From a phage: a stretch of DNA of 64,000 bases. Every line of letters begins with the position of its first letter. The first letter of the stretch is position 1. The notes beneath the pieces are model-generated. The model saw only the letters and a program-made list of their open reading frames with translations. It had not been told where the DNA came from and did no database searches. The stretch is from assembly GCA_038450185.1 (NCBI GenBank), contig GCA_038450185.1_4765.1; one strand, given 5' to 3'. Of this stretch, positions 6,844-12,821 are shown piece after piece. The translations under genes were made by a program, and so were the position numbers.

Positions 6844-7146
6844 TTACGCAAAATGGCGTGTCAATGCTTCTTTTGCTGTTCCGCTAAGATTCTCGATCTC
6901 TCCTGGCATAACATCAACCGCCAGAACTTCTACAACATCCTCTGATCCTAACCAGTGAGTATGACCTTTGTAGAACTTGATATCCCATTTATCGCTATCG
7001 CTAGCCCACCACACATCACCGTCGATAAAGTTGATGTAAAGCACACTACGACACATTGAATTAATTACTTTCAATACTGCGCCTTTCATATCTTCCACGG
7101 TATGGTCTTCCATTTTGAAGACCTCACCTACCTGAACTTTTGCCAT
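6844..7146 (-). CDS. hypothetical protein, HxHxHW family paralogue
   Basis: ORF track; motifs FIDGDVWW, KGHTHW, VLAVDV. Confidence 0.5.
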   Translation of the reverse strand: MAKVQVGEVFKMEDHTVEDMKGAVLKVINSMCRSVLYINFIDGDVWWASDSDKWDIKFYKGHTHWLGSEDVVEVLAVDVMPGEIENLSGTAKEALTRHFA

Positions 7147-7163
7147 TTAGTCACCTCTCTTTA

Positions 7164-7343
7164 TTACATAACAATCACGCCAGCCGTTGAAAGTTGATGT
7201 TTCAACTGAGCATTTTCTGCTACTGTCAAATCAATGATTTCTTGTGACGCTGCAATCATATAGCCATTGGTGATATTGTTTTTCATCAGTTCAATGGTTT
7301 CTTCGTTGTAGCGGATTTTAGCGATGATTTCGTTGAAGTTCAT
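7164..7343 (-). CDS. hypothetical small protein
   Basis: ORF track 7164..7445 trimmed to ATG 7343 (MNFNEIIAKI) with GGAGAATCAA RBS; promoter cassette upstream. Confidence 0.45.
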   Translation of the reverse strand: MNFNEIIAKIRYNEETIELMKNNITNGYMIAASQEIIDLTVAENAQLKHQLSTAGVIVM

Positions 7344-7377
7344 AATTGATTCTCCTAGTTCGTTTCGGTATGTGTGT

Positions 7378-7406
7378 AGTATAGGGGATCGGTGATCCCC
7401 TGTCAA
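7378..7406 (-). promoter_or_regulatory. early promoter cassette (TTGACA-17-TATACT), palindromic spacer
   Basis: Spacer GGGGATCACCGATCCCC on minus strand. Confidence 0.55.
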
Positions 7407-7419
7407 CAACTTTTTTGAA

Positions 7420-7896
7420 TTATTTTTCTTTATGCTCGCGCTCATACTTTTCGAAATAAAATTCTACTGGCTGGTCGTGGATTGACAGTAAGCCAAAGCG
7501 TTTAGCCGCTCGCAATCCCATATTGCGCTGAATGTACTTCTGGAAGTTCTCGCGTATACACTTACGCCAGTATTCTAAGCCCATACAGCTTTTATAAAGA
7601 TTGCATTGCACACATGCCGGATTCATGTTATCAAGTATATCATGCTCCGGTTTATGCATTCCTACAACCTTATACTTCCACGATCCATCATCATTACGGG
7701 CAATTCGTCCATTTTCATCATAGACTACCTTTGAGCGTCGCAATACTGGTTTGATGTGGTCTGCGTGCCAGCGATCCCCTAGTTCCTCGCCACAATAGGC
7801 ACAACGTCCACCATATTTCATTTTCAGGATCTGGCGTTGCTCTTTCTTTGACAATTTTTTAGGTTTAGGGGCTTTCGCCCCTTCATTATCACACAT
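7420..7896 (-). CDS. HNH endonuclease domain protein
   Basis: ORF track; CAYCGEEL...HADHIKP...CVQCNLYKS zinc-binding HNH signature; overlaps ligase gene by a few nt. Confidence 0.55.
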   Translation of the reverse strand: MCDNEGAKAPKPKKLSKKEQRQILKMKYGGRCAYCGEELGDRWHADHIKPVLRRSKVVYDENGRIARNDDGSWKYKVVGMHKPEHDILDNMNPACVQCNLYKSCMGLEYWRKCIRENFQKYIQRNMGLRAAKRFGLLSIHDQPVEFYFEKYEREHKEK

Positions 7897-9382
7897 CGAA
7901 TACCTCTTTTACTGTATTTGCAGTGGTCTTGTCGTAGCGAATACGTTTGATGATCGGGAGAAATAAAGAGAACTCCGGTTCATCTTCTTTACGTGATTTG
8001 CTGCGGATATACCCGTTGCATGTCATCTCAATGACTTTTCCAATCAGGTTATGACGGTCAGCCCATAACATTTCTCGGTCAAGTTCATTTCTACGATCGA
8101 ACGGAATCACACGTTCAATACCATCATCTTTTTCGGTTGTAGTGTCGGTCAATCCCGATCCGGTGTTGGTCATCATTCGTCCGCACGCACTACGGACAGT
8201 AAAACCGCCTACCTTATTAGGATCTTTACTATGCGGATATACATCAACAATTTCCGCGTCGAAGTCAATCACTTCTTTAAATTTAACCTGATCTTTACTG
8301 CGACGATCTTCAAATACACCATGCAGATTTTTAAGGATAATACCTTCTAATCCCATGTTTACATATCGATGATATACTTCGCGAGCTTCATCGATATTGT
8401 TAACTACAGTATTTTCGATTATCTGCACACGAGGATCGTTAAGTTCTTCAACAATCTGTTTTAGTTCTTCGAATCGATCTTTATATTGCTTCGTTGCTTT
8501 CTCGTTTCCGTAATACACATCACGGTTGATAACATCCCAGACAGTGTAAACAATACATTGGGCTTCTTCTTTTGGAATAGTTCCTTTCAGTGATTTGTTG
8601 AGGATACCATTTCCGGTCTGACGATCTGCAACAACGGATTCTTTTACTGCTTCCGCTACTGGCGTTAATGGCATTTCCTCTTCTTCAAATATCCATGACA
8701 GAGTACCATCATAAACGCTTTCAACGAAGTTCTGCGCTGGTGTTTGCGAAAGGGTAGGCATATATACCAATTCGCCATCTAGAACAATTCCACGGCCTCG
8801 TAGACGCTCTAAAACAGCAAACAAATCATCCAGCCCCTGATAGGTATTACCTGAACGGGTATATATTGCTAGTGTTTCCCCGTCAATATCAGCCATACCA
8901 CGAGCGCCATCACTTTTAAGTTGTGCATATGCCGGATATTTGATATTAGCAATAGCCTTATCAGAATATGACGATGCAAGGTGGCATGGTTGCTGTGGGA
9001 TCAGTTTCTTCCATACCTTGTTTGCAGTGGTAGCGGAACAACCGCATTCCAGATCACGATTCAGGACCATCATTGCAACTTTAGCATCATCTTCTGACAA
9101 GCAAGTCAGAGTATCGGTAACTAGTTGTAATGCAGCATTACCAGTTACTTGACGCGTGGCAAGTTTATTTTTAAAGACCTGTAATGCACCGGATAAAGAC
9201 AATACAGACGAATAACGCGATGGTTTATCGTATTTCTTTACGCCAAACGTAACCTGTTTGCAATATGCCAGATAAAAGCATTCTTTCAGCGTTTCATTGC
9301 TTGCAGATTCTTTCAGGATCTTTTCTTTCAGCGATGTTTTGTCTGTCGCTGCAAGCTGATTAATGATATTAAGAATTGACAT
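7889..9382 (-). CDS. 30: ATP-dependent DNA ligase (T4 gp30-like)
   Basis: ORF track 7889..9388, ATG at 9382 with GAGGTG SD; strong similarity to my recollection of T4 ligase (DLECG, AYAQLKSDGAR, GNGILNKSLKG, GLEGIILKN). Confidence 0.9.
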   Translation of the reverse strand: MSILNIINQLAATDKTSLKEKILKESASNETLKECFYLAYCKQVTFGVKKYDKPSRYSSVLSLSGALQVFKNKLATRQVTGNAALQLVTDTLTCLSEDDAKVAMMVLNRDLECGCSATTANKVWKKLIPQQPCHLASSYSDKAIANIKYPAYAQLKSDGARGMADIDGETLAIYTRSGNTYQGLDDLFAVLERLRGRGIVLDGELVYMPTLSQTPAQNFVESVYDGTLSWIFEEEEMPLTPVAEAVKESVVADRQTGNGILNKSLKGTIPKEEAQCIVYTVWDVINRDVYYGNEKATKQYKDRFEELKQIVEELNDPRVQIIENTVVNNIDEAREVYHRYVNMGLEGIILKNLHGVFEDRRSKDQVKFKEVIDFDAEIVDVYPHSKDPNKVGGFTVRSACGRMMTNTGSGLTDTTTEKDDGIERVIPFDRRNELDREMLWADRHNLIGKVIEMTCNGYIRSKSRKEDEPEFSLFLPIIKRIRYDKTTANTVKEVFDV

Positions 9383-9848
9383 TTTCACCTCGTTTTGTTA
9401 AACGTTCACGAATATCATTGAGGATACTACAAAATTCCGATTCGGTCAATATGGTCTTTAACGGATCAGTTCCACCTATACTATGACGTAATTTCTTATT
9501 TCCTGTAGCAAGTAATGCTTTACAAAATTCTGGGTTATTCCGTGCCATCGTAACAAATGCCAGATGTACCAGTCTGTAATAATGCTCACTCATTCGATGA
9601 ATCTGGCGACCCTGAAAATATAACATGTGATTCTCAATCTTTTCAGTTCTTCCGGTTCTTTTTGCTTTGCCACCGTGCATCAAAAAGATTTCTCTTTGTC
9701 TCTGAGGGTTCTTAAATCTTAGCCCCTGTAAAAATCCTTCTGTGCTGTTAATATCGCAACCAAATAGACGGAATGGTCTTTTATTGAAATTACTCAATTC
9801 ACCCGATGGATAAGGTCCACCCGCATAGATATCAATTTCAGAAGTCAT
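9369..9848 (-). CDS. putative NADAR / YbiA-like (DUF1768) protein
   Basis: ORF track; by-eye resemblance to YbiA-type pattern (ELSNFNKRPF, SEHYY, ALLATGNKKL, ILNDIRERL); not verified by search. Confidence 0.35.
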   Translation of the reverse strand: MTSEIDIYAGGPYPSGELSNFNKRPFRLFGCDINSTEGFLQGLRFKNPQRQREIFLMHGGKAKRTGRTEKIENHMLYFQGRQIHRMSEHYYRLVHLAFVTMARNNPEFCKALLATGNKKLRHSIGGTDPLKTILTESEFCSILNDIRERLTKRGENVNS

Positions 9849-10002
9849 TGAAACTAATCTCGCTAATCAGAGAGAACGGATCATAATCGTCATTAGGAAT
9901 ATCGATAGTAATCGAATGAGGATTTACCCATACACCAAACTGGTCTTCTTCGGTGAATACTTCGGTATGGATTTCGTGGATGTTTACATTCATAGTTTTC
10001 AT
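9838..10002 (-). CDS. hypothetical 54-aa protein (below ORF-track size cutoff)
   Basis: Hand translation: ATG 10002 with AAGGA SD, MKTMNVNIHEIHTEV..., stop 9838-9840. Confidence 0.3.
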   Translation of the reverse strand: MKTMNVNIHEIHTEVFTEEDQFGVWVNPHSITIDIPNDDYDPFSLISEISFNDF

Positions 10003-10047
10003 AATAAAATTCCTTAATAATCAATAACTTACAAAATCATATAGCCA

Positions 10048-10073
10048 AAATATAGGCGGGATTATTTCCCGCC
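10048..10073 (-). terminator. intrinsic terminator after gene 31
   Basis: GGCGGGA-ttatt-TCCCGCC hairpin, U-rich tail on minus strand. Confidence 0.5.
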
Positions 10074-10084
10074 GTTTAAAATCA

Positions 10085-10408
10085 TTAACCGTAAACTACC
10101 ACAATATTCTGTTTGTGCGTTACAGTCCATTTCAGGTCGATCTCTTCTTCCTTCTTAACGCCGTTAATAACGTCTGGATGAGGAACTTTATTCATCTTTC
10201 CATGTGGCAGTAGAACAGTTTTACCCAGCAACTCTTTATCTACCGTTTCACCAATATCAATAATCTTACCTACCAGCGGAATCTCGCCCATAGTGCGCTT
10301 TTGCTCAATAATGATCCCCATAGAGCTTTTTACTTCGGTCCCTGCGCTTTCTGCTTTAGCTTCGATAATTACATAATCACCAAGTGCTTTAGGAGTTTTA
10401 ACGGTCAT
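10085..10408 (-). CDS. 31: co-chaperonin GroES-like (T4 gp31-like)
   Basis: ORF track; about 107 aa at the position between ligase and cd as in T4; pattern loosely matches gp31. Confidence 0.55.
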   Translation of the reverse strand: MTVKTPKALGDYVIIEAKAESAGTEVKSSMGIIIEQKRTMGEIPLVGKIIDIGETVDKELLGKTVLLPHGKMNKVPHPDVINGVKKEEEIDLKWTVTHKQNIVVVYG

Positions 10409-10449
10409 AATTTTATTACCTCTTCAAATCAATACAGTTTAATGATGAA

Positions 10450-10764
10450 TTATTTATAAATTTCGACGATCTGCGCTGGAGTCAGCCCGTCTACATTAAT
10501 CAGACTATCAAGCCCAAAACTACGGAAACCTTCAACTGCAATTTCATATACTGGCAAAGATGTTTCTGATTCTTTATGCGGTTTTTCAACATTCGGAACT
10601 AACCACTTTTCGTATGTTTCAAACGGCATCAGTGCCGGATCTCGCGTGGCGATCATCTCACGGACAGTACCATCTTTCTTAGTAAACTGTAAAGAGTGAG
10701 TACCTACAGCAAGCATTTTCTTTAGTGCTTCACGAAGTGCGATATTATCAATTTGTTCAGTCAT
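10450..10764 (-). CDS. hypothetical protein
   Basis: ORF track 10450..10770 (TTG); ATG at 10764. Confidence 0.4.
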   Translation of the reverse strand: MTEQIDNIALREALKKMLAVGTHSLQFTKKDGTVREMIATRDPALMPFETYEKWLVPNVEKPHKESETSLPVYEIAVEGFRSFGLDSLINVDGLTPAQIVEIYK

Positions 10765-11263
10765 TATCAATACCCTTCAAATCAGTCAATAATGCTTTTG
10801 GAATACGCGTAACCGTAATGTCGGCTTTATCCAAAATATCAGCCCAATCACGCCCACCATTTCGGTCGTATGTATCGCAATAGTATAGATGTTTAATACC
10901 ACTGTTTGCAATTGCTTTAGCGCAATCTGGACACGGTGAAGCAGTACACCACATACTAGCGCCTTCAATCGATACACCGCTACGGGCAGCAAACAAAATA
11001 GCATTTAATTCAGCGTGGATCTCGTTTTTCTGTGACCATGCACTATGTTCTGGTCGTTTTTCTGGGATCATTTTACCGTCACCATCCAGCCAACCGCTTT
11101 TATGTGCATGACAGCTACAATTTACTTGCCCTGCTGGAGTGCCATTAAATCCAGTAGAAATGATTCGCCCGTCTTTTTCAATTAGTGCGCCTACCTTCCA
11201 CGAAACACATTTAGAGTTCTTTGCGATTAGATAGGCGATCTGCATGTAAGTTTGTGACAACAT
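10757..11263 (-). CDS. cd: dCMP deaminase
   Basis: ORF track; zinc-binding deaminase motifs HAELNAILFAA and PCPDCAKAI. Confidence 0.85.
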   Translation of the reverse strand: MLSQTYMQIAYLIAKNSKCVSWKVGALIEKDGRIISTGFNGTPAGQVNCSCHAHKSGWLDGDGKMIPEKRPEHSAWSQKNEIHAELNAILFAARSGVSIEGASMWCTASPCPDCAKAIANSGIKHLYYCDTYDRNGGRDWADILDKADITVTRIPKALLTDLKGIDND

Positions 11264-11284
11264 AATATAATCCTCACATATTAA

Positions 11285-11488
11285 TTAACCGTATACGCGA
11301 AAGTATTCTACTGATCCGTCGCTATATTGTTTTACATTGAATGTATTCACGCCATGATCATTGCTCATAATGACATACACACTGCGACGCTCATCACTAA
11401 ACGGGTTAACTGGTGCTGGTTCAATTTCAACATTAAAACCACGTTTAGCAAGTGCTTCGCCTAATTTCTTGAGTTTATCGGTAAACAT
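11285..11488 (-). CDS. hypothetical protein
   Basis: ORF track; ATG 11488. Confidence 0.4.
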   Translation of the reverse strand: MFTDKLKKLGEALAKRGFNVEIEPAPVNPFSDERRSVYVIMSNDHGVNTFNVKQYSDGSVEYFRVYG

Positions 11489-12366
11489 TAAAAGTCTCCG
11501 TAGTTAACCTGAAAACATTCTACACCAATTGAGCGGTACATGTCAACCACTTGATCACGGTCATCTACTGCCAAAACAACATGATATCGCGGTGCAATTT
11601 CAGAGAAGAAAATCTCTTTCTTTACTTCATGATCAGGACGACGATCATTAGTTTCACGTTGAAAGTGATCACTAGGTTCAATACCCTGTTCACGCAACCA
11701 TTGCAGAGTATCTTCTTCGCAAACATCCTCACGCCCTGAGCATGTAATGATACGATAGCCATTATCACGATACAGTTTAAGCATTTCGACCACTTGCTGA
11801 CGTGGTTTATCTTCTTTGACCTTTGTCCAGTCAAACGGATGACGACCGCCCTTATCCGCTAATGTTCCATCAATATCAAAGATCACTGCCTTTGGCAGCA
11901 TAGTATTCGGTTTGTATACTTCTTGACCCATATATTCCTGCATCAGATAAAATTGGTTGCGCAAATGAGAAAGTGGAATTGCTTTCTCGCCGCGATAGAA
12001 ATTACGTTTCTTTAGTGTCTCAAATGATTCATTGAACACTTGTTCAGTATACACCGCGTTAAATTCTTTTGCAAGTTCTTTGTAGAATACACGATGTTTT
12101 TCTTTCAGGTTAGTATCAGAGATAATGATACTTAATCCGCGTGATAGAGTCTCACGAGCAATCATTCTCTGAATAGACTCTACCAGCTTTTCCTTTTCCT
12201 TAGTATATTTGTATTTCAAAAGTGAGTCAACACCAAACAACATAAGACGAAGGTCATCACGATTCACATTACGATAATTACTAAACCTTTTACATGTTTC
12301 CATAGCCCATGTAGTTTTACCGGACCCAGAACAACCAACGGTTAAAATCACTTCACATTTCGGCAT
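11488..12366 (-). CDS. pseT: polynucleotide 5'-kinase / 3'-phosphatase
   Basis: ORF track 11488..12387, ATG 12366 with AGGAG SD; P-loop GCSGSGKTTWA plus HAD motif FDIDGTLAD. Confidence 0.85.
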   Translation of the reverse strand: MPKCEVILTVGCSGSGKTTWAMETCKRFSNYRNVNRDDLRLMLFGVDSLLKYKYTKEKEKLVESIQRMIARETLSRGLSIIISDTNLKEKHRVFYKELAKEFNAVYTEQVFNESFETLKKRNFYRGEKAIPLSHLRNQFYLMQEYMGQEVYKPNTMLPKAVIFDIDGTLADKGGRHPFDWTKVKEDKPRQQVVEMLKLYRDNGYRIITCSGREDVCEEDTLQWLREQGIEPSDHFQRETNDRRPDHEVKKEIFFSEIAPRYHVVLAVDDRDQVVDMYRSIGVECFQVNYGDF

Positions 12367-12821
12367 TATTTCTCCTTCGGTTTGCACCGTTCCTCATTAA
12401 GTTCTTTTCGATAATAACACATGATCAACTTACTTTCAAGTGTATATCTCTTAATATCCGCAAGCCAGACTCTGAATTTTTGGGAGTCCTCCCACGACAT
12501 AGAAACTCTAGGTTTACCGTCTATTGTATCCACTTTCAGGTCAATGTCAACTTTTTCTATTGGTGCTGGTAGTGGAGGATGTAATTTCGGTTCCTGTGAA
12601 TAATGGTCCATTGTACACGAAGAAAGAGCAAATACAATAGGTACAGCGCAGACATGGATTATGGCGGTCTGAAAATTCTTATGTGCTTTCTTAAACATCC
12701 AGTGTATCACGAAAATTGAAAACACCATCAGGATAATAATAATGCTTGCACCTATCCCCAGATAATCAACAAGATTAAAATTGTTTATCTGCTCTTGCGT
12801 AGACAATATTTCTATGCTCAT
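12366..12821 (-). CDS. membrane protein, possible o-spanin-like lipoprotein
   Basis: ORF track; ATG 12821 with AAGGAGG SD; N-terminal TM segment and internal lipobox-like FALSSC; position matches T4 pseT.2. Confidence 0.3.
   Translation of the reverse strand: MSIEILSTQEQINNFNLVDYLGIGASIIIILMVFSIFVIHWMFKKAHKNFQTAIIHVCAVPIVFALSSCTMDHYSQEPKLHPPLPAPIEKVDIDLKVDTIDGKPRVSMSWEDSQKFRVWLADIKRYTLESKLIMCYYRKELNEERCKPKEK

Follow-up and report, generated by a model that had tools for sequence, protein, structure and literature searches.

What does the short open reading frame (ORF) beside the DNA ligase gene of an RB49-like phage do for its owner? The ORF lies at positions 9369 to 9848 of a 64,000-nucleotide stretch of phage DNA (assembly GCA_038450185.1, contig GCA_038450185.1_4765.1; hereafter the window). 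A preliminary description of this DNA had recognized by eye a YbiA/NADAR pattern in its 159-residue product and proposed a counter-measure against DNA ADP-ribosylating toxins such as DarT. We found the ORF at exactly these coordinates, running from ATG to stop on the minus strand (9848..9369, stop codon 9369..9371), a strand that the description had left out, and next to the ligase gene, as it had said, which lies directly downstream. We propose, with a probability of about 0.78, that this ORF is the Krischvirus ortholog of T4 gene 30.3, whose product is now called AdfN, and that it encodes a minimal, single-domain NADAR of the phage branch acting as a guanine-specific, anti-DarTG1 DNA ADP-ribosylglycohydrolase. 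The gene and the residues on which this proposal turns are as follows.

9369..9848, minus strand: gene 30.3 ortholog (adfN-like), a single-domain phage NADAR of 159 residues; the coordinates include the stop codon.
9738..9740, minus strand: codon of Glu37, equal to E36 of T4 AdfN, E88 of E. coli C7 DarG1 and E43 of PnNADAR (alignments).
9717..9719, minus strand: codon AGA of Arg44, at the phosphate-coordinating Lys position (T4 K43, EcC7 K95, PnNADAR K50; alignments).
9483..9485, minus strand: codon of His122, the residue by which the phage (gp30.3) NADAR subfamily is recognized, placed where the last beta-strand ends (alignments and model).
9378..9443, minus strand: C-terminal alpha-helix, residues 136-157 (DSSP on the AlphaFold2 model).

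Megablast of positions 7000-12500 returned 60 phage records at 97-99% identity, all of them RB49-like coliphages. The window belongs to Krischvirus, the RB49-like T4-type coliphages, which are placed in the family Straboviridae but not in the subfamily Tevenvirinae. All 60 Krischvirus records have the 480-nucleotide gene at full length and without indels, at 96-99.8% identity. The records of RB49, JSE and Phi1 already label it 30.3, in RB49 since the early 2000s; most of the other Krischvirus records listed give a 'hypothetical protein' and a few name only gp30.3. Homologs were found by tblastn in 1510 phage records (phages of Escherichia, Klebsiella, Acinetobacter, Aeromonas and Vibrio and other T4-type phages), and an exhaustive profile search gathered 1694 clusters (50% identity) at E <= 0.001. 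The window and kaaroe copies differ by five synonymous changes and one non-synonymous change, which corresponds to a ratio of non-synonymous to synonymous substitution rates (dN/dS) of ~0.05. Against L005, a divergent relative that is 69% identical, dN/dS is ~0.12, an approximate value because the underlying dS of ~1.8 is near-saturated. The 30.3 ORF is thus a real and conserved gene under purifying selection.

The product matches the Pfam family Phage_30_3 (PF08010, 'Bacteriophage protein GP30.3') at profile positions 2-138 of 138, with E = 6.5e-38 and 130.1 bits against a cut-off of 36, and it matches PHROG 652 with E = 2.5e-45. This places it in the gp30.3 'phage NADAR' family, a clade that de Souza and Aravind classed as phage NADAR in 2012 (cited in PMC11125620). 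Six of 12 members of this family individually match the Pfam NADAR family (PF08719) at E <= 0.01, the best of them at E = 1.1e-6, and an hhalign comparison of the family alignment with the single sequence of E. coli YbiA gave a probability of 89% and E = 2e-6 over 126 columns. An AlphaFold2 model of the window protein, calculated from a 12-sequence alignment, has a predicted local distance difference test score (pLDDT) of 93.6 and a predicted template modelling score (pTM) of 0.88, and displays the YbiA/NADAR three-dimensional fold. Foldseek found only three structures at E < 1, and the structural matches of the model are the same three structures, with similar Z, as those given by Johannesman et al. 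for T4 AdfN. In a viral model library, the best matches were gp30.3-like proteins (template modelling scores 0.87-0.93), and next in rank came dozens of proteins with a NADAR domain annotation. The pattern noticed by eye is real: the window protein can be aligned with YbiA at its SNF motif, at its E-x3-Q-x2-[K/R] motif and at the His of its last strand.

A phmmer search of PDB sequences with the window protein matched no NADAR, and the family profile picked YbiA from the same sequences only weakly (E = 0.054); the fold searches were decisive instead. The phmmer search also produced a match to a DltA ligase (E = 3.7e-4 over 107 residues), an identity that we rejected as due to chance or composition. 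The sub-threshold NCBIfam match to 'NADAR family anti-phage protein', at 14.5 bits against 240, is uninformative. Elsewhere in the family, the metagenomic members P0013, P0021, P0031, P0055 and P0094 are built of gp30.3-type NADAR repeats, tandem or triple, whose extra domains have lost either the catalytic Glu (replaced by Q, N or A) or the His, and many other members (200-560 residues) carry N- or C-terminal extensions. The available passages of the phage-NADAR literature make no mention of such fused or degenerate architectures.

The window protein retains the catalytic Glu and the subfamily His. The position of Glu37, which also aligns with YbiA 'SEH', is occupied by Glu in 160 of the 168 family domain rows and in all 149 full-length domains outside the window clade, and the equivalent Glu contacts the distal ribose (PMC11543638, PMC11825919). 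His122 follows directly after strand 119-121 of the model, and its counterparts in the alignments are H123 in T4 and the Glu within 'LVEH' in YbiA; 156 of the 168 rows have His here. According to PMC11125620, PMC11543638 and PMC11825919, this His marks the phage NADAR family, where YbiA-type proteins have Glu and DarG1-type proteins have Asp. The C-terminal helix is intact and slightly longer than that of T4 gp30.3, it is modelled with high confidence except for its last residues, and the alignment reaches the C-terminus of the T4 protein. Of the 33 columns with a conservation of 85% or more in the 149 full-length domains outside the clade, 30 are kept in the window protein, Glu37 and His122 included, and three are changed (M36T, W78F and K44R).

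T4 gp30.3/AdfN is among the closest known counterparts. Both genes lie between genes 31 and 30, an orthologous position (the T4 record AF158101 labels gene 30.3), and both products are single domains of similar size (159 and 152 residues) that lack an N-terminal extension, are 38% identical end to end and share the catalytic Glu, the subfamily His and the intact C-terminal helix. Unlike the T4 protein, the window protein has Arg44 in place of K43, Phe in place of the family Trp at position 78 and Thr in place of Met at position 36, and its C-terminus is 7 residues longer. Its gene abuts the ligase gene, whereas 30.2 and 30.1 lie in between in T4, and the upstream neighbor is the unrelated ORF 31.-1 instead of 30.4. 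The window phage also stands outside Tevenvirinae, and its protein is known from sequence and model.

The function of the T4 protein is well documented. Johannesman et al. (PMC11825919) renamed it AdfN (anti-DarT factor NADAR) and report that it is necessary and sufficient for the resistance of T2 and T4 to DarTG1, that it removes ADP-ribose (ADPr) from DNA, and that its E36A and K43A mutants are impaired. In the same report, a natural frameshift in RB69 AdfN removes the C-terminal helix and results in a DarTG1-sensitive phage, the helix being required for full AdfN activity. In vitro, T4 gp30.3 is reported to hydrolyze guanosine-ADPr but not thymidine-ADPr (PMC11125620), and to leave cytidine-ADPr untouched (PMC12945103). 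The anti-DarT role suggested in the preliminary description has therefore been demonstrated for the T4 ortholog (PMC11825919; in vitro, PMC11125620 and PMC12945103), although the toxin narrows to DarT1, which modifies guanine, and away from DarT2, which modifies thymine, as T4 AdfN is stated not to reverse thymidine-ADPr or cytidine-ADPr. The finding itself is not new, since the family has been described and its T4 ortholog was characterized experimentally in 2024-2025. Activity, guanine specificity and the anti-DarTG1 phenotype are established for the T4 and T2 alleles, and from these we infer that the window protein probably has them as well.

If so, the enzyme would act in the following way. 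Infection would unleash the host DarT1 of DarTG1, guanine in the replicating phage DNA would become ADP-ribosylated, and replication would stall. The phage enzyme would bind the ADP-ribosyl-guanine adduct, with Glu37 holding the distal ribose and Arg44, a Lys in nearly all relatives, holding the diphosphate. His122 on the last strand would replace the Glu or Asp of other NADARs and complete the catalytic center. Hydrolysis of the ribose-guanine N-glycosidic bond would then release ADP-ribose and restore the DNA. The enzyme would be made from the block 31 > 31.-1 > 30.3 > 30 alongside replication and repair functions. Because 30.3 is read together with genes of DNA metabolism, stops and starts overlapping, one would expect the enzyme to be there at the onset of replication.

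Several observations weigh against this interpretation. Read literally, the profile check against Pfam NADAR that the preliminary description had proposed would narrowly have failed, as the direct match to PF08719 stays below the gathering score (16.7 bits against 35.1; E = 0.0089), Pfam having a family of its own for the phage clade. Taken together, however, the fold matches, the hhalign result and the matches of individual family members to PF08719 make membership in the NADAR superfamily secure despite the missed threshold, and at the superfamily level the assignment was correct. With the characterized T4 enzyme the protein shares only 38% identity. Full function of T4 AdfN is reported for Tevenvirinae infection only, and a phage co-factor may be necessary for it (PMC11825919); Krischvirus is not part of that subfamily, and the window has no detectable homolog of the T4 neighbors 30.1, 30.2 and 30.4. 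In a tblastn search of these 64 kb, neither T4 gp30.1, 30.2 and 30.4 nor the second known anti-DarT factor, AdfA (T4 gp61.2), gave a match at E <= 0.1, a result that covers the window only, so that AdfA may be encoded elsewhere in the genome. The phages put to the test in the AdfN study were T2, T4, T6, RB69 and Bas35-47 only (PMC11825919), and our literature search found no paper that links Krischvirus or RB49 to DarTG or DarT1. Finally, the Lys that coordinates the diphosphate and is conserved in the NADAR superfamily is replaced by Arg44. This is a conservative, basic-for-basic change, but the K95R mutant of E. coli C7 DarG1 is reported to hydrolyze guanine-ADPr in vitro while failing to rescue cells from DarT1 (Schuller et al., PMC11543638).

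A census of position 44 in the 168 domain rows gave 157 Lys and 6 Arg. Three of the Arg rows belong to the window clade (the window itself, cluster P0001 with 98% identity and the metagenomic relative P0002/L005 with 69%), one (P0146) belongs to an independent lineage and comes with intact Glu and His, and the remaining two are degenerate second domains of tandem proteins. The codon is AGA in the window, kaaroe and L005. Each of the three sequences examined from the clade has Arg, at identities as low as 69% and under purifying selection, which suggests that Arg44 is an old, maintained feature of the clade and is functional rather than a sign of decay. This clade-specific Lys-to-Arg change at the diphosphate-binding site is the sole mildly new point of the present analysis.

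The substitution is at the heart of the most probable of the alternatives, which is that the fold and chemistry are as proposed but K44R, together with W78F and M36T, has shifted or weakened the role of the protein. It would then be a poor DarT1 antagonist in vivo, or it would serve another ADP-ribosylated substrate or toxin. Candidates are guanine-ADPr on RNA, a further transferase (DarT-like, YarT-like or pierisin-like) and some other context of sequence or structure. The rarity of Arg in the family and its maintenance in the clade are in line with this idea, as is the loss of in-vivo protection by DarG1 K95R with its activity in vitro preserved (PMC11543638). Furthermore, NADARs that are equally active in vitro are reported to differ strongly in vivo (PMC11125620), and all NADAR families are reported to remove guanine-ADPr from RNA too (PMC12945103). 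On the other hand, Arg is chemically able to bind a diphosphate, K95R is catalytically active, and even the T4 K43A mutant is described as only partially defective (PMC11825919). All other catalytic and structural hallmarks are kept, the unrelated P0146 shows that Arg can accompany an intact Glu and His and may be a tolerated neutral variant, and nothing in the data points to another substrate. We therefore consider an altered role unlikely, if worth keeping in mind. The more specific proposition that Arg44 and W78F, being selectively maintained, mark a functional retuning of Krischvirus AdfN is a tentative one and, in our opinion, slightly more doubtful still. If true, the retuning could have given the enzyme another substrate or toxin preference (guanine-ADPr in RNA or a transferase other than DarT1) or independence from the Tevenvirinae co-factor that T4 AdfN may need, or it could have produced a naturally weak allele, with RB49-type phages being DarTG1-sensitive.

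Two further explanations depart from the proposed chemistry or from function altogether. A metabolic N-glycosidase of the YbiA type, which would clear reactive intermediates of the riboflavin pathway or another small-molecule ribosyl compound and leave nucleic acids alone, is highly improbable. The protein is of the His-type phage subfamily and not of the Glu-type of YbiA, its gene is situated among genes of DNA metabolism with no riboflavin genes nearby, its T4 ortholog is reported to act on ADP-ribosylated DNA with a clear anti-defense phenotype, and YbiA itself is reported to hydrolyze guanine-ADPr in vitro. The other explanation is a decaying remnant, a pseudo-enzyme kept only for its overlap with the translation-initiation region of the ligase gene. 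It would account for the replaced catalytic Lys, part of the sequence could be under constraint from the ribosome-binding site and start codon that the essential ligase gene has in the 3' end of 30.3, and RB69 shows that loss-of-function alleles of 30.3 occur in nature (PMC11825919). Yet the overlap with the ligase gene measures just 14 nucleotides, whereas purifying selection extends over the whole length of 30.3 (dN/dS of about 0.12 at the near-saturated dS), nine-tenths of the family-conserved columns are kept (30/33) and none of the 60 relatives has a frameshift, so we regard a remnant as hardly credible.

The proposed anti-DarTG1 glycohydrolase can also be set against other NADARs. DarG1 (of E. 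coli C7 and of Geobacter/Trichlorobacter lovleyi, PDB 8BAT) has an N-terminal extension, Asp in place of His122 and Lys in place of Arg44, is encoded beside its toxin and works in uninfected cells. The window gene, in contrast, is an orphan phage gene flanked by 31.-1 and the DNA ligase gene, with no ADP-ribosyltransferase among these neighbors, and its product is a bare 159-residue core with His instead of Asp. The window protein would hence work like DarG1 without being of the DarG1 type. It is 18-25% identical, depending on the alignment, to E. coli YbiA (PDB 2B3W), which has Glu instead of His on the last strand, is encoded on the chromosome together with dinG in an operon under LexA control and also removes cytidine-ADPr, which the T4 phage NADAR does not; the score below the Pfam threshold likewise separates it from YbiA-type NADARs (PF08719). 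AdfN(Bas32), AdfN(Bas60) and other independently acquired phage NADARs are similar to it as phage-encoded orphans that counter DarTG1 by guanine de-ADP-ribosylation. Unlike the window protein, the Bas32 and Bas60 proteins are reported to represent other NADAR branches (archaeal-like and stand-alone bacterial-like), to work without phage infection and to fall outside the gp30.3 family (PMC11825919).

The surroundings of 30.3 contain these further features.

7420..7896, minus strand: HNH endonuclease, 158 residues, directly downstream of the ligase gene and overlapping the ligase stop by 8 nucleotides (Pfam HNH, E = 5e-6).
7889..9382, minus strand: gene 30, ATP-dependent DNA ligase, directly downstream of 30.3 (Pfam DNA_ligase_A_M, E = 3.2e-22; start and ribosome-binding site as annotated in RB49).
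9838..10002, minus strand: ORF 31.-1, 54 residues, upstream of 30.3 (annotated as gp31.-1 in RB49 record AJ550428).
10055..10073, minus strand: strong hairpin, rich in G+C (GGCGGGA-AATAA-TCCCGCC), with a T-run behind it, just past gene 31 and ahead of ORF 31.-1 (consensus scan only).
10450..10770, minus strand: WYL_2 (Sm-like SH3 barrel) protein, 106 residues, between the dCMP deaminase gene and gene 31 (E = 4.7e-10; kept in L005).

The minus-strand block around 30.3 reads RNA ligase 1 (a name taken from relatives only), polynucleotide kinase/phosphatase, dCMP deaminase, WYL_2 protein, gene 31 co-chaperonin, 31.-1, 30.3, ligase and HNH endonuclease, and this is a typical T4-type content of DNA-metabolism genes. 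The order 31 > 31.-1 > 30.3 > 30 is common to the window, RB49 and L005, the T4 order being 31 ... 30.4 > 30.3 > 30.2 > 30.1 > 30. The ligase ATG at 9382, as annotated in the RB49 record AJ550428, creates the overlap with the 3' end of 30.3, inside which the GAGG ribosome-binding site of the ligase gene is found (RB49 annotation and sequence). At the other end, the stop of ORF 31.-1 shares 11 nucleotides with the start of 30.3. L005 keeps the whole gene order, both overlaps and the 54-residue ORF, which is 41% identical there and equal in length, position and overlap. ORF 31.-1 belongs to the transcription unit of 30.3. A Pfam search with it gave no match, and we rejected it as the counterpart of T4 gp30.4, to which it has no similarity, though gp30.4 occupies the equivalent slot. 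That small co-translated neighbors such as 31.-1 might be the phage factor reported for T4 AdfN is pure speculation.

The hairpin at 10055..10073 is possibly a terminator or an RNA-stability element that separates or attenuates the 31.-1/30.3/30 block. It is weak evidence, because a promoter and terminator scan of positions 7500-11500 found 2 terminator-like sites against 2.7 expected in shuffles, and for the same lack of enrichment we draw no claim about transcription units from the scan. A mechanical ORF list begins the ligase at GTG 9388 (7889..9388) and the polynucleotide kinase at GTG 12387 (11488..12387), both on the minus strand. The kinase product is annotated with 292 residues in kaaroe and L005 against 299 in the list, which would fit an ATG 21 nucleotides downstream, and the true starts of both genes are probably the ATGs. 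Several Krischvirus relatives match 7000-12500 by megablast in 2-3 separate pieces with ~0.4-1.2 kb of extra DNA, from which it seems that the HNH/ligase region is a hotspot where mobile or variable DNA is inserted. A plus-strand ORF of 52 residues within 30.3 (9557..9715) was dismissed as an antisense shadow ORF without independent support. Neither tRNA genes nor, at gathering score, any Rfam families occur in the window.

The practical value of these findings lies in annotation, as the 'hypothetical protein' of Krischvirus records can now be named. Since RB49-type phages are candidates for phage therapy, it is also of use that the presence of a 30.3 gene predicts resistance to DarTG1-type defense. 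If the Arg44 protein is indeed retuned, a comparison of its Arg and Lys forms could reveal the determinants of NADAR potency in vivo, which in-vitro assays leave unexplained. In the Arg44 protein, nature has already supplied a variant with which to ask why NADARs of equal activity in vitro differ so much in vivo.

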